DNA of 64,000 nucleotides from the NCBI GenBank assembly GCA_934256705.1, contig CAKQPF010000001.1, positions 40,850-104,849 on the forward strand. The letters are read 5' to 3'. Origin of the DNA: an uncultured Prevotella sp. (lineage in GTDB: Bacteria > Bacteroidota > Bacteroidia > Bacteroidales > Bacteroidaceae). Made by a program: the position numbers and the translations under genes. Below, piece by piece: positions 42,030-62,966 of this stretch (its first letter is position 1; every line of letters starts with the position of its first letter). Below the pieces are notes generated by a model. It ran no database searches. It had not been told where the DNA came from and saw nothing but the letters and a program-made list of their open reading frames with translations.

Positions 42030-42030
<1 letters not shown>

Positions 42031-42722: not shown

Positions 42723-42797
42723 TGAGAAAAGAAGAGCCACTGTGTCAGCCACGTTACCGGCTGATATAAAAAAACAAAAAAAATAACCACAACAAAT

Positions 42798-43928: not shown

Positions 43929-44052
43929 GCCCAAATATCCCATAGCATTGGTTGCCAGTTGAATAACAAAAACAACTGGCAACCATTCTTCATTTAACAA
44001 GCAGCCACTGTGTCAGCCACGTTACCGGCTGATATCTACATCATCCCGCACA

Positions 44053-45276: not shown

Positions 45277-46611
45277 ATGATAAACAAGATTTTATCTCTC
45301 ATCACAGTATGTATCGGTATGGCATGGCTTTCGTCATGCGGTTCATCAGCCAGAGTGGACGACATGAGCAACATCGGCGCATTCCACAAATACAGTTCAA
45401 TCAAGGAAGCCAACGTCCTCGCCACTGACGACAAGGGCGACGGCGGCGCAGTAGTGGACCTTTACATCGACTACTCCGACTGCATGACCACCGCAAACGA
45501 GTCTCCTTACTACAAGAGCGTGCAGCCTGCCATCATAGCATGCAACCCTAACTACTACTCCATCAAGGGCAATACCATCACATTCGAGTCCAACGACAAG
45601 ATGAAGGTGCACCAGTTGCTCAACTCCATCACCAACGTGGATTTTTCCAACATCAAGGGCGCGGTGGACAGCATCATCAAAAACCGCCACGAAGCCATGA
45701 TCATCACCGACGGTGAATTCTACCAGCAGGGCATCGGAGCAAACCTCAACAACCCTTACCTCGCCGACGAATTCAAGCAGTGGCTCGGCATGGGCCTCGA
45801 TGTCTATGTCTATAGCGAGCCTTACCAGTCCGGCAAGTTCGTGAAAAACCGCTATTACATGCTCTTCACCGACCATCGCCTCAACAACAACATACAGCAG
45901 ATATTCTCACGCGTGGCTCCAAGCCAGGCTGACGTGAAGATGGTGCACCTCTACAGCGGCATCCCTTCTGCCAAGGTGGGCAAGGACGGCGTGGACCTCA
46001 ACGAGCAGCTGCTCGCCACTGACGAGAAGGAAATCAACCAGGCTGCAGGCTACGAATGGCATATCCTCGACGAGAAATGGACCAATGTCTTCGACTATAT
46101 CCTCAATGCTACTGACGACAACGGCAACCCTGTCAAGGGTGGCGACTACTATCTCAGGGGCATAGACCTCGGCGTGACGGCTGAAGATGCTTACAAGCCA
46201 GCTGAAATAGAGGTGAAATGCTATGAGATCAGCGACCTCTATGATAGCTTCAACCCTTCAGCAAAGAAGAAGGTGGCTCTGCCTGAACCGCTCAAGAACA
46301 TGTTTGTCATCGACGAAGCGGCATGGAAGAGCGGCAAGGTGGTGGTGAAACTCGACCCTGCATTCGACGGCAGTTCGCTGACCGGAAGCAACGGCAACCT
46401 TCTCCGCCTCGACATCTGCGTGAAGGAGTCAAAGGAGAATTTCTCATCCAATCCTGAGATAGGCGACAAGTTCAAGTTCGACTCTCCTTACGGTCTCAAC
46501 ACCTCCGTCTATGAGAGCCTCAAGCAGACCCTCCTCGACCCTGCCATCAGTCCGGAAAAGAGCGGCAACCCTGTCATCTACAGCATCTACCTCTCCACTT
46601 ACGGCAATTAA
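45277..46611 (+). CDS. Lipoprotein with vWA-like (MIDAS) domain (cassette gene 1)
   Basis: Lipoprotein signal LSSCGSS. VVDLYIDYSDCMTT resembles a DxSxS MIDAS motif. AMIITDGEF resembles the conserved vWA LTDG motif. Confidence 0.55.
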   Translation: MINKILSLITVCIGMAWLSSCGSSARVDDMSNIGAFHKYSSIKEANVLATDDKGDGGAVVDLYIDYSDCMTTANESPYYKSVQPAIIACNPNYYSIKGNTITFESNDKMKVHQLLNSITNVDFSNIKGAVDSIIKNRHEAMIITDGEFYQQGIGANLNNPYLADEFKQWLGMGLDVYVYSEPYQSGKFVKNRYYMLFTDHRLNNNIQQIFSRVAPSQADVKMVHLYSGIPSAKVGKDGVDLNEQLLATDEKEINQAAGYEWHILDEKWTNVFDYILNATDDNGNPVKGGDYYLRGIDLGVTAEDAYKPAEIEVKCYEISDLYDSFNPSAKKKVALPEPLKNMFVIDEAAWKSGKVVVKLDPAFDGSSLTGSNGNLLRLDICVKESKENFSSNPEIGDKFKFDSPYGLNTSVYESLKQTLLDPAISPEKSGNPVIYSIYLSTYGN

Positions 46612-47187: not shown

Positions 47188-47254
47188 TCTGTCATCTGGT
47201 GGGCTTGATGTTTTATGGTAAAAAAAGACATCCCACCTCTTCACCCCACTTTAT

Positions 47255-47287
47255 TTAACGGTGGCAATTTACAGAACCACCCTAAAA
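47255..47287 (+). promoter_or_regulatory. Conserved 32-nt element with GGTGG-N12-CCACC inverted repeat and Bacteroidetes -7-like box, 14 nt upstream of the FtsZ-like gene
   Basis: ttaacggtggcaatttacagaaccaccctaaa. A near-identical copy, ttaacggtggtaatttatagaaccaccctaaa, lies at 59239-59270, 11 nt upstream of the membrane GTPase gene. Confidence 0.55.
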
Positions 47288-47301
47288 AAGAACCATTACC
47301 T

Positions 47302-48873
47302 ATGAATTCATTCAACGTAATAGCGATAGGAGGAACAGGAATGCGCTGTGCAGAGTCTCTCGTACATCTCTGCTCCATGGGTATGTTTGACAATACCGAG
47401 ATACATCTCCTCGCCCTCGACACCGACTACAAGAACGGAAACTTCAAGAGGCTGAAGACTCTGGTCGATAATTACAACAGCATCACGGCCGACAGGGACG
47501 GCGTCGCTTCCGACACGCTCTTCTCGGCAAAGATTGTATATTACACCTTCAGCCCTGACTATAATGCCGGCACCAACTACGACATCGTGGCGCACTATTC
47601 CGATGCCCAGACATCAACGCACGACGAAGACGGAGTGAAATGGCAGGAAAGCGACCTCGCTGACCTCTTCCTCGACCCTAACGTGCGCAAGATGGACCTC
47701 CAGCATGGCTACCGTGCACAGACGCAGATGGGCTCCATGCTCATGTATCATGCCATCAAGGAAGAGGCATACAAGAACAAGGGAAAAGGCTCCGACCTCG
47801 TCAGATACGTGGAAAACCTTATGACAAACTCTAACCATATCGTGTTCCTCTTCGGTTCGGTATTCGGTGGCACCGGCGCTTCTTCCATCCCTGTGCTCCC
47901 TCGTGCGCTGCAGGAGGCTGCCAAGATAATATCCAAGGATAGCAACGGCGACGTGCTCTCAAATAACTATTTCGGCACCGTCATGCTGACAAACTACTTC
48001 TGTTTCGACGTGCCGAACACGCACGAGGCGGTATATGCCACATCCGACAAGTTTGCGCTCAACTCCCAGGCCGCCCTCTCTTTCTACAATGAGGACGAGA
48101 CAATAAGGGATACCTACAAGAGACTCTACCTCATAGGACGTGACAAACCGCGCAACGTGACCCGACACGAGGCTCAGAGCGTGACGGGAGGCGATGCACA
48201 GCGCAATCCGGAAGACTACATCGAACTGCTCGCCGCTTCCGCCGCCTACGACTTCTACCAGAGCGCACTGGCGCATATGCAGAAGCCGGTATTCGGCAAT
48301 GAGGCGCAGATATACTATCGCACGCTGGCTTCCGACGAGGGCGACTGCCTCACATTCGAGTCTTTCTTCGGAGAAGACAAGGACAAGTTTGCACAGAAAT
48401 GTGGCATCATGATGGCTTCCGCCTTCCTCTTCGGACCGCAGGACTTCGCCAACAACCGCCGTAACCACTCTTCCTTCCAGGCGCTCACAGAGCAGAATGT
48501 CAAGGACATACGCGACTATTTCCGCAAGTTCTATGACCTTGAGGAACTGGACGAGACAGAGCCGGGCAGCGGATGGATCAAGCAGATGCAGGAATCTGCC
48601 ATCGACATCGGCTACAAGGGCTTCCTCTTCGACCAGGCGGCATACAGCACATCTGCCAATTCGGCACGAAAGTTCAAGTACAACGACAAGCTCTTCCCTG
48701 CCGGCTCTGCCTACAAGTACAGCGTCTCGCTCATGAGCAGCGCCTTCGACACGTTCAAGAAGGAGTTTGGCGACACCGTCTTCAGTGACAGCGACAAGAC
48801 TGCCGTCTCCGCTCTCCTGAAGCGCACGTACGATACTTTCACACGTCTTTATGGTTTCACTGTAAAAAACTAA
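47302..48873 (+). CDS. Divergent FtsZ/tubulin-superfamily GTPase (cassette gene 3)
   Basis: N-terminal NVIAIGGTGMRCAESL resembles the FtsZ T1 loop. The segment GSMLMYHAIKEE...NHIVFLFGSVFGGTGASSIPVLPRAL parallels FtsZ GRKAAEES...[26 protein letters not shown] (T4/tubulin signature). The C-terminal ~300 aa are unrelated to the FtsZ C-domain. Confidence 0.6.
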   Translation: MNSFNVIAIGGTGMRCAESLVHLCSMGMFDNTEIHLLALDTDYKNGNFKRLKTLVDNYNSITADRDGVASDTLFSAKIVYYTFSPDYNAGTNYDIVAHYSDAQTSTHDEDGVKWQESDLADLFLDPNVRKMDLQHGYRAQTQMGSMLMYHAIKEEAYKNKGKGSDLVRYVENLMTNSNHIVFLFGSVFGGTGASSIPVLPRALQEAAKIISKDSNGDVLSNNYFGTVMLTNYFCFDVPNTHEAVYATSDKFALNSQAALSFYNEDETIRDTYKRLYLIGRDKPRNVTRHEAQSVTGGDAQRNPEDYIELLAASAAYDFYQSALAHMQKPVFGNEAQIYYRTLASDEGDCLTFESFFGEDKDKFAQKCGIMMASAFLFGPQDFANNRRNHSSFQALTEQNVKDIRDYFRKFYDLEELDETEPGSGWIKQMQESAIDIGYKGFLFDQAAYSTSANSARKFKYNDKLFPAGSAYKYSVSLMSSAFDTFKKEFGDTVFSDSDKTAVSALLKRTYDTFTRLYGFTVKN

Positions 48874-48883
48874 TCACTGAATC

Positions 48884-51800
48884 ATGGCAATTACAAGCAA
48901 CCTTTTACCAAAGTGCCTGAAAGGTCACGATACTCAGATGGCAAAGCCCAACACCTGGCAGAAGATGGAGCAGGCCCGACAGTTTATCGACAGCATCGAT
49001 ACCACGGGCGGAGAAATGGACGAAACCGCCAAATTCAATCTCCTCGTCTCCAGTGTGCCATCACCTTGGGCAAGAGTTCATCTCACCCAGCACGCCATCA
49101 TGCCCGGCAATGAAGCCGGCGACACACGCACTCTGACACAGTTCTACGCCTTCATGCGAAGCGAATGGCGCGGACTCATCGCTGCATACGTACTCTATCC
49201 TGAGGACTTCGAACTGACAGACCCTATCGACCTCGTGCCTAAGGACATGGCAAGCAGGTCAGGACAGTTCGACATCCTCAGCACCTACTCCGAGATGCTC
49301 TTCGAGAATGCTCCGCTCTGGAAGCACCAGAAGGGCGATAAGGAGAAGCCAAGGATGCAGTTGCTCTATTATCACAACGGTGACAACCGATTCGTCATCG
49401 GTGGCACTTCGCCGTTCAGCATCCTCTTCGCTGGCATGAACTACAGCATTCCTGACGATGACCAGAGGATATACTGGGTAAACGGCGGCAAGCTCCAGGA
49501 CCCTGCATCCAGGGAATACGAGACTTACTACAAGAAAGACGGTGCCAAATACAACGACAAGCACTTCAACAACCTCAAGAAGCTCTATTCCTTCCTCAAC
49601 GGCATCCAGAAGAATTCCGCTGAATACGTCAATACGCTCAAGAGCATCTGGGACACTGACCATAAACTGATTGACCAGCCGAGCACCACTGATGCAAGAT
49701 ACCATATCATAGGCATGGTGCTCAATGGTGCCGTGGCAAGCTGGATGGACGACATAAAGAGTATTCTCGGCAACGCAATAGCAGAGAAGGCAAAGAACAT
49801 TCCTGTCAACCACAAGCGTCCGGAAGGTCCTCTTGGACAACTGCTTGACATCAAGGCGAAATACTATTGGAGAAATGGCATCTTCTACACCAAGCCGATT
49901 GAGACCGCCAATGTCGTGGCGGAGGTCAAAGATGTGGTGGTGGAAAATGTGGAAAGCCTCTTCATCGACAGCGACTATCTGGCAGGATGGCGCGACTGTG
50001 CCGTGCCTTCCACCGACAATATGGGCAGAGCCACGGCAAGGATGGAAAACGACTACCGCATGTCTCCTGTCCATTTCCTCACCGCCATCGACGAGCAGGA
50101 CGGCAAGACATGGTTCTTTGCCGTGCCGTTCAGTGAGTTCGCACTCATGGATGTATTCAAGCAGGAGTTTGAATCCATCATCAAGGGACTTAACAAGAAC
50201 GTCATCGTCAAGGCGGAAATAAACGGCAAAAGGGTAGATGTATATCTCAAGGCACGCATCGACGGAGAGGGCGAATGGATCAACATACGCAACCGCTCAT
50301 TCAACATCGAGGTGCCTAACTCCACAAGGAAGGTATTCGCATGGCCTAACTTCTGCTCTTCCAAATGGCAGAAGTACTACTATTACAGCGAATTCCCTAC
50401 CAATGCCACCACCGATGTGCAGATGGTGCCGGTGTTTGATGAAATCGCTGACATAGAGGACAGCAACATGCTTAGCAAGGTCTCCAAGGAGGCATTCCTC
50501 AAAATGGTGAAATATCCTGCCACAGCAACGTCCGACACCCATGCATACGAAATAATAAGGACCAACAAACCGCTGAGACGCATCAAGATACGCAAGTGCA
50601 TAGGCAATTCCGTAAGCGAACTCGGATGGCTTGTATTGCGCAGGGTGCAGTACAACAATCCTGACGAGCCGCGGGGCATACAGGTCATCAGAGACACAGA
50701 CAAGTTCTCCGGCACCACCGTGGGATTCGACTTCGGCAGCACCAACTCATGCGCCTACTACTCAGGTCAGGACGCAAATGACATACGTCCGGTTCCGTTC
50801 TCCAACAGAAGACTCGCGATTATCGGCTTCGACAACAAGCCGGTGTTCACAGCGGAGCCTAACGAACTCCTCTTCATCTCCAACGAAGAGCCACGCAACA
50901 AGAACGGACAGATAAAATCATGGCTGCATGAGCACGACCAGATGTTCATCGACCCTAACATGATGGGCGAGGAACTCATCGGCGGCGTGCCTGTCAATGA
51001 GACAAACATCACCGTCAAGAGCATGACTCCTTACGAGATCACCACCAATGCCGGCAAGCTGCATTACAACATGAAGTGGCTCGTGGACTCTGACGGAAGC
51101 CGCAGAAAGGCAGCGTTCGTCAAGATGGTATGGATACAGATATGCGCCGACCTCTTCGCTGAAGGGCTTTATCCAAAGACGCTCAACTGGTCTTACCCAA
51201 GCGCTATGGGCGCAAATGACATGAGTGCATTGCAGAGCATCTACGCTGGCATTCCTTCACCATGTCCTGAATACAAACTTGATGACAGGGAGAAATTCTC
51301 CTTCACCGAGGCTGAAGCCGTCTGCTCATACTTCCTCGACAAGCGAATAGCTCTCGCAGACTACAATCTCTTCGTGGGTATCGACATTGGCGGTTCCACA
51401 TCCGACATCCTCGTGCTCGGCAAGGACACACAGGATTACTGCAACGGACAGCCTGAGACAGCCAAGCCTACCGAACCGCAGCCACAGCCTAAACCGCAAC
51501 CACAGGCGGCTCCTGCCATCAATTATGATGACTATGGCAGGAATGAGCTGGCTGATTTGGCATTCAAGCGCGGGCTCGCCACTGAGAGGGAACTGGACGA
51601 CATGGGCAGAAAGGACATCGTGGAACTGCTCAAGGCCAACGATTCCGGACAGCCAAATTACGACGACATGAGCCGCAGCGAGCTTTGCAAGGAAGTACGC
51701 CGCCTCGGTCTGGAGCATCTCATCGACCTCGAAGAGGTGAGCAGGAGCGAGATAGTGGAATTCCTCAAGAAACATTCCGGCACGCAGTCCATCGACTATA

Positions 51801-53095
51801 CCGCCATGAGCCGCAAGGAACTCTGTGACCTTGTGCGCCAACGCGGACTGGAACACCTCATCGACCTCGAAGAGGCTGGCAAGACGGACATCATCAATTT
51901 CCTTAAGGCGCACGAGACTGCTGCCGCTCCCCAGCCTGTCACTACAGCCGCTCCGGAGCCTCGACAGCAGACCAGAAGTACCGCTCCCACACGCAATGAA
52001 CGTGAAAAGACCGACGGCAGACTCTACACCCAGTGCTCTGTACGCATGGCAGCTGGCGTGTTCTTCGATGCCATCATCGACTCCAAGAAGTTCCGTGACT
52101 GCATCAGGAGTTTCCACGCTTCAAGGACTACCGACATCAAGGTGGAGGACATCGACAGCATCGAGGTGGACAAACTCAGAGCTCCTTATTATCTGAACAA
52201 CATCTTCGACCAGCTGCACGGCGACCAGGACTTCAAGAAGTTCTACGAATACCTCAAGATCGACGTGCCGTTCGTGTTCTCTCTCCCTGCCTACATCGTG
52301 GGCGCGCTCATGGCTTACTCGGGCATGCTCGTCAGAAACGCCATCATCACGCAGAGGATGGACAAGGTGGAAGAGGTGCATTTCCGCTACTTCGGCAAGG
52401 GTGGCCGTCTCTTCGAGTGGCTCTTCTTCACATTCGAGAAGGAGAAAGTGGAGGCTTATCTCGATGCTTGCTTCGAGGTGGGCATAAAGAATTCCGCCAT
52501 CAACGAGGCGCTCCACCGCAGTGATGACTTCGCCATCAGGTGCATATATGACAACTGCAACGAGTATAACTACGGCTGCAACGAAAACTCCGAGAACAAA
52601 TCCGAGGTGGCACGCGGTCTCGTATCACGTCATGAGATCACCGGCATCCAGCCTAACCGCAAGAATATCTACGGCAAGCGAAGCGACAAGGCGAAGAATG
52701 AATATGACGCACGCAAACAGGAGGTTATCGGTGAGGTGGGCATCAAGCTCAATGGCGTGGAGCAGGATGAGCTTTCTCTCGTCAATGACAACTTCTATGA
52801 GAGCAAGGAAGCTATATCCTTGCCGCGCACATTCCATAATTTCTCCGAATTCATGGAGATATTCCTGCAGTTTATAGGCAAAGAGGCTGCTCTCATTCAA
52901 ACAAAAGAACTTGAAGAGAAGATTGACAACGTGGAGAATGTGTGGAGTTTCATCATTAACGACCCTGAATACAAGAAGTACCTCGCAAACATCATCAAAA
53001 ACAATGATGACTCTTACCGTATGCCTGTATTCATCGCCACTGCCCTCTATTACCTCGAAGAGGTGCTGCTGAAGGAAGTCTTTGCTACCAATTGA
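48884..53095 (+). CDS. 1403-aa protein with Hsp70/actin-fold (ASKHA) ATPase core and three inserted HeH/Rho-N-like repeats (cassette gene 4)
   Basis: Phosphate-1-like TVGFDFGSTNSCAYY (compare DnaK IGIDLGTTNSCVAV) at aa ~605. Phosphate-2-like VGIDIGGSTSDILVLG at aa ~830. A PQPQPKPQPQ linker is followed by 3 x ~38-aa repeats (ELADLAFKRGLATERELDDM / ELCKEVRRLGLEHLIDLEE / ELCDLVRQRGLEHLIDLEE). An adenosine-motif-like FGKGGRLFEW comes later. The N-terminal ~590 aa are unassigned. Confidence 0.55.
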   Translation: MAITSNLLPKCLKGHDTQMAKPNTWQKMEQARQFIDSIDTTGGEMDETAKFNLLVSSVPSPWARVHLTQHAIMPGNEAGDTRTLTQFYAFMRSEWRGLIAAYVLYPEDFELTDPIDLVPKDMASRSGQFDILSTYSEMLFENAPLWKHQKGDKEKPRMQLLYYHNGDNRFVIGGTSPFSILFAGMNYSIPDDDQRIYWVNGGKLQDPASREYETYYKKDGAKYNDKHFNNLKKLYSFLNGIQKNSAEYVNTLKSIWDTDHKLIDQPSTTDARYHIIGMVLNGAVASWMDDIKSILGNAIAEKAKNIPVNHKRPEGPLGQLLDIKAKYYWRNGIFYTKPIETANVVAEVKDVVVENVESLFIDSDYLAGWRDCAVPSTDNMGRATARMENDYRMSPVHFLTAIDEQDGKTWFFAVPFSEFALMDVFKQEFESIIKGLNKNVIVKAEINGKRVDVYLKARIDGEGEWINIRNRSFNIEVPNSTRKVFAWPNFCSSKWQKYYYYSEFPTNATTDVQMVPVFDEIADIEDSNMLSKVSKEAFLKMVKYPATATSDTHAYEIIRTNKPLRRIKIRKCIGNSVSELGWLVLRRVQYNNPDEPRGIQVIRDTDKFSGTTVGFDFGSTNSCAYYSGQDANDIRPVPFSNRRLAIIGFDNKPVFTAEPNELLFISNEEPRNKNGQIKSWLHEHDQMFIDPNMMGEELIGGVPVNETNITVKSMTPYEITTNAGKLHYNMKWLVDSDGSRRKAAFVKMVWIQICADLFAEGLYPKTLNWSYPSAMGANDMSALQSIYAGIPSPCPEYKLDDREKFSFTEAEAVCSYFLDKRIALADYNLFVGIDIGGSTSDILVLGKDTQDYCNGQPETAKPTEPQPQPKPQPQAAPAINYDDYGRNELADLAFKRGLATERELDDMGRKDIVELLKANDSGQPNYDDMSRSELCKEVRRLGLEHLIDLEEVSRSEIVEFLKKHSGTQSIDYTAMSRKELCDLVRQRGLEHLIDLEEAGKTDIINFLKAHETAAAPQPVTTAAPEPRQQTRSTAPTRNEREKTDGRLYTQCSVRMAAGVFFDAIIDSKKFRDCIRSFHASRTTDIKVEDIDSIEVDKLRAPYYLNNIFDQLHGDQDFKKFYEYLKIDVPFVFSLPAYIVGALMAYSGMLVRNAIITQRMDKVEEVHFRYFGKGGRLFEWLFFTFEKEKVEAYLDACFEVGIKNSAINEALHRSDDFAIRCIYDNCNEYNYGCNENSENKSEVARGLVSRHEITGIQPNRKNIYGKRSDKAKNEYDARKQEVIGEVGIKLNGVEQDELSLVNDNFYESKEAISLPRTFHNFSEFMEIFLQFIGKEAALIQTKELEEKIDNVENVWSFIINDPEYKKYLANIIKNNDDSYRMPVFIATALYYLEEVLLKEVFATN

Positions 53096-53194: not shown

Positions 53195-55237
53195 ATGGCT
53201 AAATACCTGCAATTATATCTCGACAACGACTACATAATACCCATTGGAATGGGCGACTCAGGCAACGTCAACAAATACGTTGACCAGCAGGCGTCAAGGC
53301 GTATGTGGCTCTTCTTCTCGAATGCCACCAGCAATGGCGCATACAATTCCAGCGAGACCAACAAGGCAAATGCCGAAGCCGGAAAGGAAGGCTTCTTCGG
53401 GAATTTCTGGAACCACATTGCCAAAGCCGACAAAGTGCCGGGCGAACCCTACCTTTTCATCGAGCTGCTCGACCTCTCCGGCATCATCTCCACGCTGAGG
53501 GAATGGGCAAACATGACACTTTTCACGGAGTCACCTGAGGTGGTGCTCCATTTCTCGTCCGTCATACCTCTCAAGGCAAGGCGCGCTTTCGCCGATTACA
53601 TCGAGAAGAAACTGGGCAAGATACGCAGTTACAGCAAGGAAATCAATGACTTGCTCGCAGAGAAGGTGAAATGGGACAACAGTTCCATGACCGCTGCCTT
53701 CGGTGACCAGATGCTCGTCATACAGTCTTCCGGCAATGACATCCTCCTTTCCGTGCAGACATGGTGCGGAGAGCAGTTCATGCAGGGCGACGAAGCCGTC
53801 CGGCTGAAGAAGAAAGGCAGTGAGTTCCTCAAGATGGAGCTCGCCAAGATGGTTGTCGATTTCTATGAGAAAAGCAACAACATGCTCCTGCAGCCGCAGA
53901 AAGAGCAGGAGTATGTCTATCAGATGCAGTTCACTGAGACATGGCTGAAAGGACGGAAAGGCGACAGTGATTTCTGGGTCGATAACTTCCATTACTCGCA
54001 GAATCCGGGCAAGATATACCCGCCTGTACTCATTGACGGCAAGCAGCTCAACCTCATCGAGAAGGAAGCCATACGCAATACCATCAATGCCATATCCAGA
54101 TACAGCAGCGAGAACATACGAAACAACCTCCTGCATACCATCCTTATGGGCGACGTCTTCAGGGAAGAGATCTTCCTGAGAGACTGTGTCAGCGTCACCT
54201 CAAGCGACGGCAAATACACTTTCTTTGACGACAACGCCATTCAGGAGGCTCTCGGACGCTACAATGTAAAATACTCCACGCTGGTGGAGGATCTCCGTGA
54301 CCTGGAGCGCACATACGCCGACAAGGCTAACGAGAGGGCAAGGATAGGCACATACGTGCATAATGCCGAAGAGCTCGGAATGCTGAAGTCTCTCTCCGAA
54401 GAGGCTGAGACGAAGATAAAGAAAGCTTACGACCGTGTCAACGATGCCAACAAGGACCTCAGGGAGTCATGGGATTCCTTGATGCGCCACAGCGACTTCG
54501 AGAAGGCGAAGGACACTATTGCAAAGATGTCCACAAGCGACGAACTGACCATTGCCAAGGCGGAAGCCATGGAGTGCCTGAAATCCATCGAGCAGAAGAA
54601 CTCACTGCTCATCGACCTTCACCAGCTGCTGGAGGTGCGAGACATCGTGGAGAGCATCAGAGGCAGGGAAACGGCCATCAGAACGTATGTCAAGCAGGTG
54701 GACGACCTTCGCGAACTGCCCGACAAGCTCCGTGACCTCGTGAGGAAATATGAGGACATCTACCCCAAGTATCTGGAAGTCAAGTCACAGTTTGACCATG
54801 AGGCGACCCTCGTGGGCAGGCGCAGACTGATAGAAGAGATGAAGCCGCTGACTATGGAACCGATGCCTGTGGTGGATGTAGAGACCATCAAGGGCACCAT
54901 CAGCGTCAAGAGCGAGTCGTCAGGCGGCTTCCTCGGCATAGGAGCGAAGAAGTGCATCACCATCCGTCTCCACATAGACAAGCCGCTCCCGTGCCGTGGT
55001 GTCCTCGTCATTGCTCCGGATGTCATCATCAATATCCCGGACGGAAGATGCGGTATCCACTGCATCGACGTGGAAAAAGGCGAGGAAGGCGATGTCATAG
55101 AGATGAGGACCGACCTCCAGTCGCTCGGTCTGAACAAGTCTGCCAAGTCCCTCTTCATCAAGTTCTGGCCCCACGAAGATGAGAAAGTGCCTATCAACCG
55201 CTTTGAGATCCGCGGCACAGGCACGGTGAAAGTGTGA
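53195..55237 (+). CDS. 680-aa hypothetical protein with central coiled-coil and C-terminal beta-rich domain (cassette gene 5)
   Basis: Heptad-rich helical stretch at aa ~340-540. No recognisable catalytic motif. N-terminal IIPIGMGDSGNV is of unclear significance. Confidence 0.45.
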   Translation: MAKYLQLYLDNDYIIPIGMGDSGNVNKYVDQQASRRMWLFFSNATSNGAYNSSETNKANAEAGKEGFFGNFWNHIAKADKVPGEPYLFIELLDLSGIISTLREWANMTLFTESPEVVLHFSSVIPLKARRAFADYIEKKLGKIRSYSKEINDLLAEKVKWDNSSMTAAFGDQMLVIQSSGNDILLSVQTWCGEQFMQGDEAVRLKKKGSEFLKMELAKMVVDFYEKSNNMLLQPQKEQEYVYQMQFTETWLKGRKGDSDFWVDNFHYSQNPGKIYPPVLIDGKQLNLIEKEAIRNTINAISRYSSENIRNNLLHTILMGDVFREEIFLRDCVSVTSSDGKYTFFDDNAIQEALGRYNVKYSTLVEDLRDLERTYADKANERARIGTYVHNAEELGMLKSLSEEAETKIKKAYDRVNDANKDLRESWDSLMRHSDFEKAKDTIAKMSTSDELTIAKAEAMECLKSIEQKNSLLIDLHQLLEVRDIVESIRGRETAIRTYVKQVDDLRELPDKLRDLVRKYEDIYPKYLEVKSQFDHEATLVGRRRLIEEMKPLTMEPMPVVDVETIKGTISVKSESSGGFLGIGAKKCITIRLHIDKPLPCRGVLVIAPDVIINIPDGRCGIHCIDVEKGEEGDVIEMRTDLQSLGLNKSAKSLFIKFWPHEDEKVPINRFEIRGTGTVKV

Positions 55238-55312: not shown

Positions 55313-56536
55313 ATGGCAAAGACAATATTATGCCCATACTGCTTCGAGTCGTTCAAGAACACCGAGGTTATGGTGCAATGCGAAAACTACACCACACGCA
55401 CCATCGACGGAATGCCGAAGGACGTATGTCAGAGAGAAGAAAACAAGCGTTTCAACAACCATTGGGACAGCATGGTAATGTCAAAGCACGTCTTCTATCC
55501 GCATATCGGACTGAAAGACAAGCTCATGGGCTATAAGCCAAGGGCGTGCGAATGCGACCAGTGCGGCGCTCCATCCACCAGATTCGTATGTCCTCACTGC
55601 AACAACTGGCTGCCTACCGAGATGATCGAGAAAGGCTCTGAAATCATTTCCGTCATAGGCGGTCCGGCAAGCGGCAAGTCAAACTATATCGTAGCCCTCA
55701 TCCAGCAGCTACAGAAGTACGGCTACAAGCTACAGCTCGGACAGATCCTACCGCAGCTCGTGGGCAGGACTAAGGCGGAATATACCCGCAATCTCTATGA
55801 GAAAGCCAAGGACTCCATCTTCAAGGACCATCAGCCAGTGGCTAAGACTGCCGTCACATCCCACCCTATCCCATGGATCTTCCGACTCGAAAGCCACGCC
55901 ACGAAGAAGGCTGTCTATCTCGTCTTCTACGATACAGCAGGCGAGAGTTTCAAGGATCCGGAGGAAATAAAGAAGAATGCCAAATACCTGGAGAAGTCAA
56001 AGGCGGTCATAGTGCTCCTCGACACCCTCTCTCTGCCTTATATCCAGAAGATTCTCGCTGCCAAGAAGATTGTCAATCCCGACAAGGCTACACCGTTCGG
56101 CGAGACCATGGATGCGCTCAAGAACTTCGCCACCGAGAATCCTCAGCTACTCAAGACACCGTTCGCGTTCGTCATGAGCAAGTTCGACTCCGTCATACAG
56201 AACCAGGAAGACCTCGACTTCGACATCGAACCGTTCAAGCACAACAGTTCGTTCATACAGACCGGCACTCTCTCCCTCAGCGAGGTGGACGAGGCAAGCA
56301 AGACCATACAGAACTATATGGAGAACCACTGGGACGAAGGTGCCCTCGGATATGACATCACCCAGAAATGGGGCGACAACGCAAGATTCTTCGGTGTCTC
56401 AGCTCTCGGTGCAATGACTAACGACAAGATGAAGATCGGAATCCCTGACGATGAGCAGGTAAAGCCGTTCAGAGTAATGGACCCACTCATCTGGCTGCTC
56501 CATAAAGTCGGTGGATTCGGCATACCTGTCCAGTAA
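55313..56536 (+). CDS. Zinc-ribbon + Ras-like small GTPase (cassette gene 6)
   Basis: N-terminal CPYC...C...C...CECDQC...CPHC (two CxxC pairs plus extras). G1 VIGGPASGKS, G3 FYDTAGESF (DTAGE as in Ras DTAGQE), G4-like VMSKFD. Confidence 0.6.
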   Translation: MAKTILCPYCFESFKNTEVMVQCENYTTRTIDGMPKDVCQREENKRFNNHWDSMVMSKHVFYPHIGLKDKLMGYKPRACECDQCGAPSTRFVCPHCNNWLPTEMIEKGSEIISVIGGPASGKSNYIVALIQQLQKYGYKLQLGQILPQLVGRTKAEYTRNLYEKAKDSIFKDHQPVAKTAVTSHPIPWIFRLESHATKKAVYLVFYDTAGESFKDPEEIKKNAKYLEKSKAVIVLLDTLSLPYIQKILAAKKIVNPDKATPFGETMDALKNFATENPQLLKTPFAFVMSKFDSVIQNQEDLDFDIEPFKHNSSFIQTGTLSLSEVDEASKTIQNYMENHWDEGALGYDITQKWGDNARFFGVSALGAMTNDKMKIGIPDDEQVKPFRVMDPLIWLLHKVGGFGIPVQ

Positions 56537-56589
56537 TGCTCCTTCATCCTAAATAGAGTTTCTTCACCTGATAACCAAACACTTTCCCT

Positions 56590-59061
56590 ATGAAATACTA
56601 TCACGTTATATACAATTCCTCCGAATGCTCAATGCTCGGGGGCACTGGTTTCGGACTGAGAACTGCCACTGAAGGCACGCCTGACTCACTCCTCAAGGCC
56701 ATCGACGCGCTCAATTTCTTTCCTGCCGACGACTGGGAGACATATCAGAACACGCCTACACCGGAGCAGATAATGCAGAATCCGGAGTGCATGGAGAATA
56801 TCCCGATGGACTATGCCGTCACCGCAATCTCTGACGACCAGGGAAACAGATACCATCTCATAGCGAGAAGGGCTTACGTCGGCTTCGACTATTCATTCTA
56901 CAAGACCGGCTCCGCAACGCGTCCGGGAAATTTCGTCATAGACTATTACATCTTCGAACAGGCTCCCGACAGCTCCGCTTACCAGATTCTCTATGAGAAA
57001 GCGCTTCCGGAGTCCAACCATTTCATTCCGGCTTCCGTCAGACCTACTGCCGACAATGAGGAAATGCGCACCATCTCCATCGGCAAGCAGCCGCTGCTGC
57101 CAGTGGAGGACAAGCCTTTCACTGCCGACGTAGAGAACGCCCTCGACAAGGATGTGGTCAAACTCTTCTTCCATTTCCTCGCCGCAAGGCAGGCAGGAAA
57201 GAAGCTATATGTCAAGGCTGACAGACAGCGCGCGCTCAAGATCACAGCAGACTTCTACCGTATGCTCGACGTAAAGTCTGCCACGGAAATACATACTCGC
57301 GTCAACCACCGTGCGGAGGGTCCTAACGAGAACTTCGACATCTACTTCATCCTCGACTCTTATCCGCATCAGGTCTATTCGGGAGGCTTCTACAGCTATA
57401 TCGAGCTCGACTCCGCCACCATGCCCGACACCGACGAGGCAAAGACCTTCAGCCACGAACTGGAGGACTTCGTCTCCGCTTCGTTCTCGGAAAACAAGAG
57501 CGACATCGATGACATCCTACGCTGGCTACTCATGCCGGAATATTCTTCGGTGAAGAAACTCTCCAAGACCACCAACGACGCATTCTTCCTCTACTGCATA
57601 CAGCCGGGAAATTTCTCCTACAGCAATTTCAGAGACAGCCAGGGACGGCTCAATGAAGAGTTCCTCAATGTCCTCATGCCTTACACCAAGAAGGAGAAAA
57701 CCAACGCCAGACTGTTCGACTCTCTCGTCACCGAGACCATCAACGATGCCACATACCAGGACATCATCCTGCTCATCAAGGAGTTCCATAAGTTTGAAGC
57801 CCTCGGCTTTGACATGAAGGAAAACAATGAGGCGGTCAGACAGCACGTCAGCGAGTGCATCCTCACAAGCCCCGACGTGCTCAGAGCCGTGCTCGACAAG
57901 ATAGGATATGACAGCGTGGTGCAGTTCTTCGACAAGGACGTTTTCGAGCGAAACGGCGACTTCACGCTCGCCAAAGTGCTCGATGCGGATATGCTGAAGC
58001 TCTACCGCCACTTCCTCTCCGATGCCGAACTGCGCGACAGGGAGACCATGCTCTACGACCGTTTCCTCGCATGCGGCATGGAGAGCAAGTATCTCATCCC
58101 TATCATCGACGACATCTACGGCGGGGAAAACGACGGCAAACTTCTCTTCTTCATCCATGTGCTCAAGGATGAACAGAAGCCGTTCGGCACCGTATGGCCT
58201 TACATGGAGCATTATCTCCAATCCACACCTTGCCCGGATTTCCTCAAGCTCTTCCAGCATAAGCTCACCGACGGACAGTACGCACCGATGTTCTATTTCT
58301 CCATCAAGGCGCACAAAGCCGACTTCTCGTCCATCGAAAGCATACAGGCACTCACCGATATTCTCCACGGCAACGAGAAACTCAAGGCGCTCATACAGGC
58401 AGGCTACCATCAGGACGGCATATATTCCGACTTCAAGGGCAATGTAAAGACGCTCTATATGCAGCATCATGACAAGGCTCAGGAAGCGCTCACCGCCATA
58501 AATGTCAATATCCTCGGATTCTTCACTGCCGTCAAGGACGACCAGCTCGCAGACCTCGCACTCTACCTCGACATGGTGGCAAACAATGGTTACCAGAGGC
58601 TCCACGAGAGGAAAGTGCCGGTGGTGTTCTCCCTCGTCAGCCTGCTCAATGACGATGAGACGTTCGGACAGATGATTCCTGCATTCGTCAAGGCTTACCA
58701 GAAGGGCGACATCCCTGCCGAAGAGCTTGCCAGACTATATGACAAGTTCAACCACGGCGTAAGCACCGGCGACATGATCGACGACCTCGACGCGAAGCAT
58801 TCCGTACCTATGCTCGGCATCATCATCTGCAAGATGAAGAAAATGCCGTTCGAACAGGCCTATGCCCTCGCCAAAGACCTCGGCATAGACAAGGACACGA
58901 GAGCCAAGGTGATGGAGGAAAACTATCAGAAAGAATACAAGTCATACCTCCGCAGCAAGAAGATAAAAGGATTCTTCAAGTCCATCATACGCATCTTCAT
59001 CCCGGCAGACAAGGACAAGAAGGATGCGAAAGCCAAGGACAATGCCGGAAAAAAGAAGTAG
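56590..59061 (+). CDS. 823-aa alpha-helical hypothetical protein with Lys-rich C-terminal tail (cassette gene 7)
   Basis: No TM segment. N-terminal SMLGGTGFGLRT glycine-rich loop. C-terminal KDKKDAKAKDNAGKKK. Confidence 0.45.
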   Translation: MKYYHVIYNSSECSMLGGTGFGLRTATEGTPDSLLKAIDALNFFPADDWETYQNTPTPEQIMQNPECMENIPMDYAVTAISDDQGNRYHLIARRAYVGFDYSFYKTGSATRPGNFVIDYYIFEQAPDSSAYQILYEKALPESNHFIPASVRPTADNEEMRTISIGKQPLLPVEDKPFTADVENALDKDVVKLFFHFLAARQAGKKLYVKADRQRALKITADFYRMLDVKSATEIHTRVNHRAEGPNENFDIYFILDSYPHQVYSGGFYSYIELDSATMPDTDEAKTFSHELEDFVSASFSENKSDIDDILRWLLMPEYSSVKKLSKTTNDAFFLYCIQPGNFSYSNFRDSQGRLNEEFLNVLMPYTKKEKTNARLFDSLVTETINDATYQDIILLIKEFHKFEALGFDMKENNEAVRQHVSECILTSPDVLRAVLDKIGYDSVVQFFDKDVFERNGDFTLAKVLDADMLKLYRHFLSDAELRDRETMLYDRFLACGMESKYLIPIIDDIYGGENDGKLLFFIHVLKDEQKPFGTVWPYMEHYLQSTPCPDFLKLFQHKLTDGQYAPMFYFSIKAHKADFSSIESIQALTDILHGNEKLKALIQAGYHQDGIYSDFKGNVKTLYMQHHDKAQEALTAINVNILGFFTAVKDDQLADLALYLDMVANNGYQRLHERKVPVVFSLVSLLNDDETFGQMIPAFVKAYQKGDIPAEELARLYDKFNHGVSTGDMIDDLDAKHSVPMLGIIICKMKKMPFEQAYALAKDLGIDKDTRAKVMEENYQKEYKSYLRSKKIKGFFKSIIRIFIPADKDKKDAKAKDNAGKKK

Positions 59062-59238
59062 AACATATTAAAGGGTGGTTCTAAAAATTAGCTTTGTTAT
59101 ATTTCGAGGCTATTTTCGAGATCAAAGTGCAAGTGAGCGAAGGAGTTATGCGGTGCATAACGACTGAACGAACTTACGCTTTGAGCCGAAAAGAGACCGA
59201 AAGATAACAAAACGTCATCCTTACAATTAAGTTTTATA

Positions 59239-59270
59239 TTAACGGTGGTAATTTATAGAACCACCCTAAA
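59239..59270 (+). promoter_or_regulatory. Second copy of the GGTGG-N12-CCACC promoter/operator-like element
   Basis: ttaacggtggtaatttatagaaccaccctaaa, 11 nt upstream of the ATG at 59282. Confidence 0.55.
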
Positions 59271-59281
59271 TACAAGCACTT

Positions 59282-60934
59282 ATGACCAACGCCATATCAA
59301 GCATCATGCCACTCGCGGCAGAGTACAGCCTCGACCAGAACGGTTCGATAGTCATCTGGTCATTCGCCATTCTAAGCGCGATAATCTTCCTCCTCACGTT
59401 CCTTTCCGACATATGGAAGAACATCTGGAGCAATATCGGAGGCGAATATGACGACAACAACATGCGCAGACTGTTCATGTTCAACAAGCAGCCTTACATG
59501 GCAGTGCTCTTCATAGCCGTGTCGCTACTCATATCAGCCCTCATAGCCGGAATATGCCTCTTCATCGTGGGAGGTGCCGGATACCTGCTCCTGTGGCTCG
59601 TCAAACTGCTGATATGGGCGCTTATCATAATAGGATGGATATGCGTCGTGGCTGGCGTACTGTGTCTCATCGGCACCCAGCCCGTCGGATGTCTGCCGCT
59701 CATCATAGGTGGTGTCATAGTATATTTCAGCGACAATCTCAAGGCATTCGCAAATGCCTGTGTAGAAGCAGGTTTCAATTTCTACAGCGCACTCAACGTA
59801 TGGGACCTCGGAATGTTCATGATTTCGGAATACGGCGTAGCATTCCTATGCGTCGTGGCCACTCCGATAGTCATAGGCATCATAGCGGCCGTCATCACAA
59901 TGATCATAGCCGGCATATTCTGGCTCGTGGAGACCATCATGACATCCAGATACAACATCAAGCATCCATGCCCGTTCTGCCATAACCCGTCAGAGCCTGC
60001 CACATATCTCTCGGAAGGCTACGAACTGCCCATCAAGCTCCGCCCTGGAATGTACGGTCTCTTCCACATCAAGCACCCTATCACACAGGAAGAAATGCCT
60101 ACGATGATTCTCAACGGCAGAGACGACCTCGAACGCATCTGCCCGCATTGCAACCGCAGAATAGGCTATCAGACCGGTGTGGAGAAGCACATCGCTTTCG
60201 TGGGTCTCCCTGAGTCCGGAAAGACCTGCCTCACATACCGCTTCGTAGGCAACATGATGAAACGCTATGCGGAAATCACGTTCACCGACAATGTCAGCAA
60301 CGAAGCCAAGCGAATCATAGCAAATATCAAGGAAGGAAAGAAGCAGGAACTCGCTGCCAAGACCAGCGTATCCGACATGAAAAGAAGTCTCCAGATCATC
60401 GTGCCGGGAAAAGGACGAATGCCTTACCATTTCTTCATCAATGACGTGGGCGGAGAACTCTTCACCGACAGCGGTGTTAGGCAGGACTATATGCAGTTCT
60501 TCAAGGACGTGCAGGTAGTCTCCATACTCATAGACCCGTTCACCATGGACTTCTCCGAATACGACATCGACGGTGAATTCGCCAAATGGTACAAGGAGAA
60601 CATCACAGACAAAGGCGTTGCAAAGAAGGAAAAGCTCTCCAATGTCATACAGACCATACAGACCATGTCGCAGCAGTTCACGCACAAGACCGACAAGATA
60701 CACGTCAATCTCATCCTCGTCAAGGCCGACACAGGCTACATACATCGCAAAGACAAGCAGGACGAAGGCAAAATCCGTGACTTCGTGGCACAGCAGATGG
60801 GAATGGCAGGAGAAATCAACAATCTGGAGAATACCTACGCATCACTGCATTTCTATGCCGTCTCTGCCCTGCAGGACACCGGTATCGACCAGATGACCGA
60901 CGGCATCATCGAACAGCTCAAGGTAAAACTGTAA
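59282..60934 (+). CDS. Polytopic membrane protein with cytoplasmic zinc-ribbon + GTPase domain (paralog of 55313-56536; cassette gene 8)
   Basis: About 6 TM helices in aa 20-215. Then HPCPFCHNP...CPHCNRR zinc ribbon. G1 GLPESGKT, G3 FINDVGGELF (DVGGE, Arf/G-alpha-like), G4-like LILVKAD. Confidence 0.6.
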   Translation: MTNAISSIMPLAAEYSLDQNGSIVIWSFAILSAIIFLLTFLSDIWKNIWSNIGGEYDDNNMRRLFMFNKQPYMAVLFIAVSLLISALIAGICLFIVGGAGYLLLWLVKLLIWALIIIGWICVVAGVLCLIGTQPVGCLPLIIGGVIVYFSDNLKAFANACVEAGFNFYSALNVWDLGMFMISEYGVAFLCVVATPIVIGIIAAVITMIIAGIFWLVETIMTSRYNIKHPCPFCHNPSEPATYLSEGYELPIKLRPGMYGLFHIKHPITQEEMPTMILNGRDDLERICPHCNRRIGYQTGVEKHIAFVGLPESGKTCLTYRFVGNMMKRYAEITFTDNVSNEAKRIIANIKEGKKQELAAKTSVSDMKRSLQIIVPGKGRMPYHFFINDVGGELFTDSGVRQDYMQFFKDVQVVSILIDPFTMDFSEYDIDGEFAKWYKENITDKGVAKKEKLSNVIQTIQTMSQQFTHKTDKIHVNLILVKADTGYIHRKDKQDEGKIRDFVAQQMGMAGEINNLENTYASLHFYAVSALQDTGIDQMTDGIIEQLKVKL

Positions 60935-60946: not shown

Positions 60947-61984
60947 ATGCAAGACATCAGCAGCAAAATATTCATCATATACGCCTGGGAGGACACAGCG
61001 AGAGTCAACAGCATTCTCAAGGAATGCGAGTATGAAATCAACGCCAAGCTCACAGCTGACATCGACACCGGCCACTCTCCAATCCTCGAAGACAAGACCA
61101 CAAAAGCCATCGAGGACGCTAAAGTAGTCATGGTATTCATCAGCGATGCAGCAAAGAAGTCAGACTACGTGAAGGCCGCCGTCACATATTCACTCAACGT
61201 AAACAAGAACATCCTCCCCGTCAACATCGACAAGAGAAGCATGTTCAGCTCCATGCCCGAAGAATTCAAATTCAGGGCAAAGCCGTACAACATCAACGAT
61301 GACGAGTCGAAAAACATGCTCATAGCACAACTCAAAGCCACTCTCGGCATCAACATCGAGAATGGAGACGAGTTCGGAACGCTCATCCACATCGTCACTG
61401 ACCGCAACGCCAAGATAATGCGTTACGGCGAAGACCTCGGCACCGCCGAAGCAGGAAAAGACTGCAAGATAAGGCTCGCCAACGGCTACCACCGCCTCGA
61501 ATTCATCGACACCGAAGACCCCTCCATAAGATGCATCGTGCATTACAATGTCGAAGACAATGTCAAGGAGCAGTTTCTCGAAGTGCCTATCATGCTGCGA
61601 TATGAGCAAAAACTCAGAGCCGACGAAAAAGCCAAAAGGGAAGAGGAAATCAAAAGGCAGTTCGACGAACAGAACTACAAGAAAAACCTCGAAATCGAGC
61701 AGCGCAACCGCGAACTGGAACTGAAACAGCGTGAGCGCGAAGCCGAGAGAATACATCAGAAGCAGCTCCAGGCAGCAGAAGAAGAAAGGAAGCGCAAGCA
61801 AAGGGAAGCTGAGGAGGAAGAAAGACAAAGGCAGGAAGAAGAAAGGCAAAGGCAGAAAGAAGAAGAAAAAAAGAAAAACAAGCCAAGCGGCTGTCTCATC
61901 ATCATCCTGATATTCCTCGGCATCGCCTTCCCCATCTCACTAATCTTCTCCATCCCTTATCTCATCTATAAATACAAGGATTAG
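60947..61984 (+). CDS. TIR-domain protein with charged coiled-coil and C-terminal TM anchor (cassette gene 9)
   Basis: KIFIIYAWEDTARV (TIR beta-A-like) and VVMVFISDAAKKSDYVKAAVTYSL (beta-D/alpha-D-like). Then EERQRQEEERQRQKEEEKKK coiled-coil. Terminal GCLIIILIFLGIAFPISLIFSIPYLIY TM helix. Confidence 0.55.
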   Translation: MQDISSKIFIIYAWEDTARVNSILKECEYEINAKLTADIDTGHSPILEDKTTKAIEDAKVVMVFISDAAKKSDYVKAAVTYSLNVNKNILPVNIDKRSMFSSMPEEFKFRAKPYNINDDESKNMLIAQLKATLGINIENGDEFGTLIHIVTDRNAKIMRYGEDLGTAEAGKDCKIRLANGYHRLEFIDTEDPSIRCIVHYNVEDNVKEQFLEVPIMLRYEQKLRADEKAKREEEIKRQFDEQNYKKNLEIEQRNRELELKQREREAERIHQKQLQAAEEERKRKQREAEEEERQRQEEERQRQKEEEKKKNKPSGCLIIILIFLGIAFPISLIFSIPYLIYKYKD

Positions 61985-62164: not shown

Positions 62165-62557
62165 ATGAAAACAAATCCCCTAATCCAAGCCCTCCTGATA
62201 GCTATCCTGTCCCTCGTCCTCACAGCCTGCAACAAGCAGGAGCAAGCCATCGATGACCTCCGCTCCTTCTCAGAGCAGCTGAAGGAAGAATCCGCCGACT
62301 ACACCGAGGAAGACTGGCAGCAGGCAGGCGAGCAGTACCAGCAGCTCGTCGAGGAAATCAACCAGTACGAATTCACCGACGAGCAACTCAAGGAAATCGG
62401 CCGTCTCCAAGCCGTCTGCATCAAGCAGATGAGCAAAGGTGCCATGAAGATCATGCGCCACAACATGAACAGCATCTCCAAGCAGCTCGAAGGAGCCCTC
62501 GAAGAATTCATGTCCCCCGACACCGACCAGCCGGACCAGGACGACCAGGAGGAATAA
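62165..62557 (+). CDS. Small acidic lipoprotein (hypothetical)
   Basis: Lipobox LVLTAC. 130 aa with a D/E/Q-rich C-terminus. Confidence 0.55.
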   Translation: MKTNPLIQALLIAILSLVLTACNKQEQAIDDLRSFSEQLKEESADYTEEDWQQAGEQYQQLVEEINQYEFTDEQLKEIGRLQAVCIKQMSKGAMKIMRHNMNSISKQLEGALEEFMSPDTDQPDQDDQEE

Positions 62558-62966
62558 GCCCTCATCGCACACCGCCACTGTGTCAGCCGTGTCACCGGCT
62601 GATTACCAGCCCCTTGCCATCCCCCACAGCGATAGCCATGCCATCATCCCCCAATAGCATAGCTATTACAACGCAAAAGCGCCGTTATCAGGAAGCAAAA
62701 GCATAGCTTTCACTCCCTGATAACGGCGCTTTCATGAATTTTCCAGAAAGATTTTGTAATCTGCAGATTTTATAGTAACTTTGCACCCCAAATAGGCTGT
62801 TCCGAACGCAGCCTCGCCACAAGGCTCCACCAGCGGAAATGATTTGCATTATCAATTGTGCATTATGAATTATGCATTATGAATTGTGCATTATGAATTA
62901 TGCATTATGAATTGCCCCCTTACCGCCCGACATCAAGATAACAGACACCAACAAAGGAAAGAAGAA

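Follow-up and report, generated by a model that had tools for sequence, protein, structure and literature searches.

The sequence analysed here is a 64,000-nt window from an uncultured Prevotella sp. (GCA_934256705.1, contig CAKQPF010000001.1, positions 40,850-104,849 of the forward strand; coordinates below are window positions), and the feature under study, at 55313-60934, comprises three co-directional plus-strand open reading frames (ORFs), encoding proteins of 407 amino acids (aa; 55313-56536), 823 aa (56590-59061) and 550 aa (59282-60934). These bounds exactly match those of a preliminary description of the locus, which had read the outer two genes as paralogous small GTPases, one soluble and one membrane-anchored, and the middle one as their possible partner. 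The trio is part of an extended run of plus-strand genes separated by short gaps of 10-220 bp, in which the gene order is a vWA-like lipoprotein (444 aa), a tubulin-like protein (552 aa), an ASKHA-like protein (1403 aa), a 680-aa protein, the soluble GTPase, the 823-aa protein (GAP1, GTPase-associated protein 1), the transmembrane (TM) GTPase and a TIR-domain protein. Below we relate this block to the "GTPase-centric" conflict systems of DO-GTPases and GAP1, which were defined computationally by Kaur, Burroughs, Iyer and Aravind in 2020 (eLife 9:e52696, PMC7159879) and for which the Pfam models PF19975, PF19993, PF20013 and PF20014 are available.

We explored the two outer proteins using Pfam profiles, homolog alignments and structure models. 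The 407-aa protein scored 32.7 bits against DO-GTPase2 (PF19993) and 31.0 bits against DO-GTPase1 (PF19975), both above the gathering threshold (GA) of 27 bits, while the 550-aa protein scored 32.0 bits against DO-GTPase2 (GA 27) and a sub-threshold 19.3 bits against DO-GTPase1. Database homologs (263 for the 407-aa protein, mostly from Bacteroidales, and 121 for the 550-aa protein; the named ones from Bacteroides, Paludibacteraceae and Muribaculaceae) nearly all carried precomputed PF19975/PF19993 annotations, and this applied to both proteins. The motifs quoted for both proteins in the preliminary description were all found at defined positions and were too strongly conserved to be chance occurrences: GGPASGKS (aa 116-123, nt 55658-55681), DTAGE (aa 207-211, nt 55931-55945) and SKFD (aa 289-292, nt 56177-56188), with a G5 motif GVSA at nt 56393-56404, in the soluble protein, and GLPESGKT (aa 308-315, nt 60203-60226), DVGGE (aa 388-392, nt 60443-60457) and VKAD (aa 480-483, nt 60719-60730), with a G5 motif AVSA at nt 60857-60868, in the membrane protein.

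Among 15 orthologs of the 407-aa protein (40-81% identity), G116, G121, K122, D207, T208, G210, E211, K290, D292, eight cysteines and the G5 FGxS residues were invariant; the switch-I Thr candidate K178-T179 and S363 were, like D207 and K290/D292, invariant or nearly so. Among 60 homologs of the 550-aa protein, the invariant residues were C230, C233, C287, C290, G308, G313, K314, D388, G391, E392, K481 and D483, together with the switch-I Thr candidate K360-T361, which lies ahead of beta2. The preliminary description had named a lack of guanine specificity in G4 as a refuting result; the K and D of G4, however, are invariant in both groups, in favour of that description. The Glu that follows DxxG was likewise without exception (E211 in 15/15, E392 in 60/60), and such a conserved Walker-B Glu after DxxG is the hallmark of the DO-GTPase family (Kaur et al. 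2020, eLife 9:e52696, PMC7159879). Both proteins are therefore confidently predicted to be TRAFAC GTPases of the DO-GTPase ("double-GTPase") family with the guanine-specificity Asp intact, and both keep all residues for guanine-nucleotide binding, plus the family-specific Glu.

Consistently with this assignment, AlphaFold2 (AF2) folds the 550-aa protein (pLDDT 87) into a Ras-like core in which a beta2 (367-374)/beta3 (382-389) hairpin ends in the Walker-B D388, and the top Foldseek matches of this model in the PDB were all TRAFAC GTPases (KRas, Ral, Rap, Arl6, Rab, EF-Tu and Era; target-normalised TM-scores 0.65-0.72, identity 10-16%). PDB sequence searches with both GTPases, and likewise with GAP1 relatives and the TIR, tubulin-like and 1403-aa proteins, returned P-loop, zinc-ribbon or helical-repeat noise and no solved relative. 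The paralogy of the two proteins, also claimed in the preliminary description, was borne out by profile-profile comparison (hhalign probability 98.5% and E 2.4e-15; the 238 aligned columns start at the last zinc knuckle, end at G5 and show 18-21% identity) and by pairwise BLASTP (E 8e-5, 21% identity), which identify them as genuine and ancient paralogs.

The N-terminal regions of the two GTPases differ. A zinc ribbon (ZnR) with four invariant cysteines does precede each GTPase domain, as had been described, but the number of ribbons is not one each: the soluble protein has two, C7/C10/C23/C39 (ZnR1, nt 55331-55429) and C81/C84/C93/C96 (ZnR2, nt 55553-55600), and the membrane protein a single Cys4 ribbon at aa 230-290 (nt 59969-60151), whose knuckles are 53 residues apart with beta strands between them in the AF2 model. 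Ahead of this ribbon, aa 19-222 (nt 59336-59947) of the 550-aa protein form a polytopic TM block, with hydropathy blocks at 19-46, 69-153 and 176-222 and AF2 helices at 21-39, 70-130, 134-148, 150-171 and 174-227. Hydropathy and modelled helices thus agree that the anchor is real, but the six spans originally assigned to it become five or six. Most Muribaculaceae-type homologs (in the range P0203-P0274) are ~680 aa long and have an extra N-terminal signal peptide and a ~100-aa ectodomain before the TM block, precomputed as SH3_3 (PF08239) in some and as PF00542 in some others. A signal peptide and ectodomain ahead of the block imply that the spans are odd in number, which would make a five-span anchor with an additional interfacial helix more likely than a six-span one.

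The 823-aa protein, for which a GAP/GEF-type role (GTPase-activating protein/guanine nucleotide exchange factor) had been suggested, is indeed best read as a dedicated partner of the GTPases, and homology identifies it as a divergent GAP1 of the N2 type. Its gene (56590-59061) starts 53 bp after the 407-aa gene, and this order was the same in all loci. The profile of its family retrieved just 190 proteins from 1.84 billion representatives. Close homologs matched GAP1-N2 weakly in 10 of 23 cases and GAP1-M weakly in two, and the remote relatives from the profile search matched GAP1-N2 at E <= 0.001 in 28 of 41 cases (best 3.1e-12), one of them scoring 41.4 bits (GA 24). The syntenic Paludibacteraceae ortholog (locus L007) reached 31.6 bits against the same threshold of 24. 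When the 823-aa family was aligned by hhalign to the relatives that bear GAP1-N2, the probability was 100% (E 1.7e-57) over 744 columns, reaching the C-terminus. GAP1-M matched weakly in one of the 41 remote homologs, with a best E of 3.8e-4 across the close and remote sets together. A 1433-aa metagenomic relative (P0161) carries a GAP1-like protein and a DO-GTPase2 domain in one polypeptide, which provides independent support for a physical GAP1-GTPase partnership; GAP1-DO-GTPase fusions have been described for GAP1 (Kaur et al. 2020, PMC7159879).

The AF2 model of GAP1 (pLDDT 89) comprises a longin-like alpha/beta domain (b-b-a-b-b-b-a, where the longin fold runs b-b-a-b-b-b-a-a; aa 1-136, nt 56590-56997), a second alpha/beta domain (aa ~185-275, nt 57142-57414), an alpha-helical solenoid of ~520 residues (aa 282-803, nt 57433-58998) and, after aa 803, a disordered Lys-rich tail, all encoded on the plus strand. 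The matches listed for the model were Mon1 (7.0), NPRL3 (7.0), DENND1A (6.9, over 207 residues), CCZ1, Lst4, FNIP2 and TagF. The longin-like fold of the N-terminal domain is a tentative assignment. A longin relationship is not mentioned in the 2020 description of the family (Kaur et al., PMC7159879). A PDB search with the profile of the GAP1 relatives gave noise and no solved relative.

Comparison of loci showed that the three core genes travel with the tubulin-like, giant ASKHA-like and 680-aa genes and, mostly, with the TIR-membrane gene, so that the connection to TIR and FtsZ-like genes drawn in the preliminary description is reflected in conserved synteny. The full order from the 444-aa gene through the TIR gene was kept in six Prevotella/Bacteroidaceae loci from metagenome-assembled genomes, one of which lacks the TIR gene (L002). 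Paludibacteraceae loci contain all but the TM-GTPase, with a longer multi-TM TIR protein instead of the 345-aa one and, after it, a MORN protein. In Muribaculaceae, locus L011 has the core and a TM-GTPase with an extra N-terminal region (681 aa) and no TIR gene. The conserved order therefore spans three Bacteroidales families, and the DO-GTPase pair occurs in one neighbourhood in 6/6 Prevotella/Bacteroidaceae loci and in Muribaculaceae, while Paludibacteraceae have a single copy. Across 185,579 species genomes, a gene-pattern scan, limited in reach to close relatives, turned up 10 loci. Identity across loci was 76-82% for the GTPase, 41-54% for GAP1 and 43-48% for TIR, the latter two diverging fastest, and the flanks differed by lineage (thiamine genes in the window, folE/tpiA in L011, RhuM and WYL-WCX in L013). 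Differing flanks and fast divergence of GAP1 and TIR fit a mobile cassette with a conserved switch and a variable output, as the 2020 paper proposed, but do not thereby prove a defence role. In Paludibacteraceae-type loci (L007-L009; L013, 15387-21230), a conserved gene for a 396-aa MORN-repeat protein comes after the TIR-like gene, and RhuM-family and WYL-WCX (BrxR-like regulator) genes come next; such RhuM/WYL-WCX surroundings are typical of defence islands.

We conclude that the region is probably the switch core of a GAP1-N2-type DO-GTPase conflict cassette, in a Prevotella-like Bacteroidales version. In the published GAP1-N2 type, one GTPase has two N-terminal zinc ribbons, a second GTPase has N-terminal TM helices and peptidoglycan-binding domains such as SH3, GAP1 is encoded downstream of a GTPase gene, and lineage-specific components include tubulin, HSP70, vWA and rapidly evolving FNIII repeats (PMC7159879). 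The DO-GTPase pair, the double zinc ribbon, the TM paralog, the position of GAP1 and the putative tubulin/HSP70-like neighbours make the core found here match this description point by point. Shared features extend from the paralogous Walker-B-Glu GTPases with their ZnR/TM split, the downstream GAP1 and the putative tubulin/Hsp70-like neighbours to membrane-proximal parts with SH3 ectodomains in relatives and a sporadic, apparently mobile distribution. The novelty implied in the preliminary description does not hold, since paired ZnR- and TM-fused GTPases, a downstream partner gene, tubulin/HSP70 neighbours and TIR-type effectors were all described in 2020 and have Pfam models.

What is new is modest. 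The host belongs to Bacteroidales, a tubulin-like gene is accompanied by an ASKHA-like one, and an N2-type cassette ends in a TIR-TM gene, an effector type that the paper lists for N1 systems; family-wide, it describes partners as variable and effector-like (PMC7159879). The topology of the membrane paralog also differs: the GTPase here has no C-terminal TM segment and its relatives' SH3 domains are N-terminal, whereas the published SH3 follows a C-terminal TM segment. To these differences are added the lack of a detected FNIII protein and the tentative longin-like fold of GAP1. One supplement of the 2020 paper lists neither Prevotella nor Paludibacter.

Several observations weigh against the assignment to a GAP1-N2 conflict cassette. 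The window GAP1 is too divergent for the Pfam threshold and, taken alone, reached only a sub-threshold match to GAP1-N2 (PF20013; E 0.051, 14 bits against 24), and GAP1-C was found in none of the 23 close and 41 remote homologs scanned. The FNIII-repeat protein listed for N2-type systems was not found, with no fn3-type Pfam match in the nine cassette proteins (up to E <= 10 where a protein was unannotated). The assignments as Hsp70-like and tubulin-like draw on motifs or sub-threshold scores and are accordingly putative. Neither L002 nor the Muribaculaceae locus carries a TIR gene, so that TIR is not an obligatory output, and the usual TIR catalytic Glu tentatively seems not to be conserved. 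PADLOC has no matching model, and no relevant match resulted when all seven proteins were scanned with PADLOC and NCBIfam. Finally, the searchable literature returned only the 2020 paper and no experimental study of DO-GTPases or GAP1, so that the defence role and the mechanism are predictions.

The 2020 prediction casts DO-GTPase/GAP1 cassettes as immune switches that set a threshold (PMC7159879), and from that model together with the anatomy of the present locus a sequence of events can be proposed. An event at the envelope, for instance wall damage or an attacking phage, would be reported by the membrane paralog through its TM block, the periplasmic SH3 domains of its relatives and the lipoproteins of the cassette. 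Membrane and soluble paralogs might then pair through their G domains, and GAP1 would dock on the pair by its longin-like N-terminal module and set or read the GTP/GDP state, which would constitute the threshold. The helical solenoid of GAP1 might recruit the outputs, namely the tail-anchored TIR protein and the tubulin-like and ASKHA-like proteins, which would form nucleoside triphosphate (NTP)-dependent polymers, and the outcome would be growth arrest or cell death. The version found in gut and rumen Bacteroidales is compact and well conserved, its nine genes are all defined, and GAP1 and the membrane GTPase have confident models, which makes the cassette a concrete candidate for testing the 2020 prediction.

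The tentative longin-like fold of GAP1 invites comparison with the eukaryotic longin/DENN regulators (Mon1-Ccz1, DENND1A, GATOR1 NPRL2/3, folliculin-FNIP) and the archaeal Roadblock-Longin proteins, and the locus could help to show whether small GTPases of bacteria, like those of eukaryotes, are subject to longin-type regulators. The strongest form of this idea, which we consider speculative and rather doubtful, is that GAP1 acts on the DO-GTPase pair as a true GEF/GAP platform, a longin(-DENN)-type regulator of nucleotide state in bacteria; the cassettes would then be the prokaryotic counterpart of the Mon1-Ccz1, GATOR1 and DENN modules and, in Bacteroidales, would link a sensor GTPase embedded in the envelope with a membrane TIR protein and with polymers of tubulin-like and actin/Hsp70-like type that are driven by NTP.

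The rival that survives best, although we judge it unlikely, is a housekeeping cytoskeletal or envelope machine with a function at the division site, in polarity or in the cell wall rather than in immunity, in which tubulin-like and actin/Hsp70-like polymers are steered by a membrane GTPase pair and a longin-type regulator, as in MglA/MglB. MglA/MglB likewise combines a bacterial small GTPase with a dedicated regulator of the roadblock/longin superfold and has its output on cytoskeletal/polarity proteins; in contrast, MglA has no zinc ribbon and no TM anchor, belongs to another GTPase family, is a single GTPase with a chromosomal housekeeping role in motile bacteria, and has no linked TIR or tubulin genes. 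A housekeeping role would suit the fact that the most conserved block consists of the tubulin-like, 1403-aa, 680-aa, GTPase and GAP1 genes and survives without TIR in two loci, as well as the envelope-facing parts (relatives' SH3 ectodomains, lipoproteins), the missing PADLOC match and the possible lack of the TIR catalytic Glu. It accords poorly with the sporadic distribution given above, both of loci among species genomes and of GAP1 among database representatives, with flanks that vary by lineage and in one locus include RhuM and WYL-WCX neighbours, with the fast evolution of GAP1 and TIR relative to the GTPase, and with terminal TIR-type and multi-TM genes that differ among loci in a family whose published partners are effector-like.

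The preliminary description had taken DTAGE as Ras-like and DVGGE as Arf/G-alpha-like, from which one could picture two small GTPases of eukaryotic type, from the Ras and the Arf/G-alpha lineages respectively, forming a sequential relay with a classical GAP/GEF between them. The window GTPases do share the TRAFAC core fold and G1-G5 layout with the Ras/Arf superfamily, which supplies their best structural neighbours (KRas, Ral, Arl6 and Rab among them); the DxxG motifs superficially resemble DTAGQ and DVGGQ, and the longin-like domain of GAP1 is of a type used by eukaryotic GEFs and GAPs. We rejected the Ras-versus-Arf reading of the two motifs, however, because the residues between D and G vary inside each orthologous group (DT[AP]GE in the 407-aa group, D[VIL][GAS]GE in the 550-aa group) and the equivalent of Gln61 is the invariant Glu, a family trait. 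Pfam Ras (PF00071) reached 15.9 bits against a threshold of 21.6 over the P-loop span only, TIGR00231 small_GTP reached 20 bits against 42.5, and the 407-aa protein had no match. Identity to Ras/Arf structures is as low as given above, EF-Tu and Era score equally well, and no Ras or Arf protein is as close to the 407-aa or the 550-aa protein as these two are to each other. They are further set apart by the N-terminal ZnR/TM fusions, by Glu in place of the catalytic Gln and by large helical inserts that follow alpha1 and alpha3. A Ras/Arf relay is thus highly improbable, and the locus does not represent a new class of bacterial Ras/Arf signalling.

It is also very unlikely that the P-loop domains are ATPases or inactive pseudo-GTPase scaffolds. 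In favour of that reading, the soluble protein has S/T and the membrane protein V/P/T/A where NKxD has its N, Glu stands in for the catalytic Gln, and PDB profile searches gave weak, P-loop-only RecA and VirB11 matches, but these span only ~30-55 residues round the P-loop, while invariance in 15-60 homologs extends over G1 GxxxxGK[ST], the switch-I Thr candidate, G3 DxxG, K and D of G4 and SA of G5, septin AKAD and dynamin TKxD are bona fide guanine-specific xKxD variants, and both profile matches and structural neighbours (Ras, Arl, Rab, EF-Tu, Era) lie in GTPase families and not in AAA/ABC, as had been expected.

Downstream of the membrane GTPase, the 345-aa TIR-domain protein (60947-61984, plus strand) consists of a TIR domain (aa 8-96, nt 60968-61234), a conserved beta-rich middle, a Glu/Arg/Lys coiled coil and a C-terminal TM anchor (aa 311-341, nt 61877-61969), and is the putative output or effector of the cassette. 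It matched Pfam TIR_2 above threshold (37.3 bits, GA 28) and ThsB_TIR weakly, a likeness to the TIR anti-phage systems (Thoeris ThsB, TIR-STING); unlike these, it has no ThsA-like partner and no PADLOC match, and its TIR domain is fused to a coiled coil and a C-terminal anchor. The gene was syntenic in five of the six Prevotella/Bacteroidaceae loci. To place the catalytic Glu we used an SxWCxxEL-type motif, which we take to mark the register; at the expected position (aa ~70-85 region) the window protein has Ala and the orthologs A, C or F, with A, E, Q or D at the neighbouring residue. The domain may be a non-catalytic oligomerisation or adaptor module. A PDB search with the profile of the TIR protein aligned no solved TIR by sequence. 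In one Bacteroidaceae locus (L006, 16448-18611), the TIR gene is followed by two added genes, encoding a 295-aa protein weakly similar to the TIR protein and a 412-aa protein, which suggests duplication or variation of the output module.

Upstream of the core, the 552-aa protein (47215-48873, plus strand) is a divergent member of the tubulin/FtsZ superfamily according to motifs and sub-threshold Pfam matches. It has a T1-like IAIGGTG motif and an invariant T4-like GSVFGGTGASS loop, its GSVFGGTGASSIP block is invariant, and it matched Pfam Tubulin at a sub-threshold E of 0.0024; orthologs matched Tubulin in 9/11 and Tubulin_2 in 4/11 cases, all below threshold, and the family had no PDB match by sequence. 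The giant 1403-aa protein (48884-53095, plus strand) is tentatively an ASKHA (Hsp70/actin-like) protein, as suggested by phosphate-1- and phosphate-2-type motifs, GFDFGSTNS (614-622) and GIDIGGSTSD, that are invariant in the alignment. It had no Pfam or PDB match, and hhalign of its family with the DnaK nucleotide-binding domain (NBD) recovered the phosphate-1 motif only (18 residues, probability 55%). Between the phosphate-2 motif and the remainder of the ASKHA-like domain lies an insert (~aa 860-1040, nt ~51460-52000) with a Pro/Gln-rich linker and three ~23-aa helix-extension-helix (HeH/SAP/Rho-N-like) repeats (~885-1015) of the consensus SRxELCxLVRxRGL...LDxxSRxEIVELLKANE. Paludibacteraceae orthologs have a Gly/Leu/Ser low-complexity stretch at this site and L002 has extra repeat copies; Tandem Repeats Finder detected nothing at the DNA level in the repeat region of the gene.

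The conserved 680-aa protein (53195-55237, plus strand), syntenic in every locus examined, has a coiled-coil-rich middle and a beta-rich-looking C-terminus of ~120 residues, in which a divergent beta-sandwich could be hidden. It had no Pfam, PADLOC or NCBIfam match, and a second Hsp70/ASKHA domain was considered and rejected, as hhalign found no similarity to the 1403-aa family or the DnaK NBD. At the start of the block, the 444-aa predicted lipoprotein (45277-46611, plus strand) has a signal peptide ending in LSSCG and two motifs conserved in the alignment, DxSDxM (VDLYIDYSDCM) and ITDGE (ITDGEFY), that resemble the MIDAS site of vWA domains; it had no Pfam match, and the vWA assignment was made from these motifs. 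Its gene was syntenic in L001, L002 and L004-L006, and weakly so in L007 and L009. It is a probable periplasmic component of the cassette and would be the extracytoplasmic vWA component that the 2020 paper describes for tubulin-type systems.

A scan of the cassette for sigma-70 promoters and terminators, with a tool that does not cover Bacteroidetes promoters, gave results no different from shuffled sequence. Immediately upstream of the cassette, at 38603-44658, lies a thiamine-biosynthesis cluster (thiE-like, thiG, thiC, thiF, thiH-like radical SAM and tenI-like genes), which places the cassette in an ordinary chromosomal setting. At the other end, an acidic 130-aa predicted lipoprotein (LVLTACNK; 62165-62557, plus strand) had no Pfam match but is kept immediately downstream in L001-L003 and is possibly the last gene of the cassette. 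About 125 bp past it, at 62681-62727, is a hairpin with a perfect-looking 20-bp stem, the strongest inverted repeat of the scanned region, which may be a bidirectional terminator at the cassette end.

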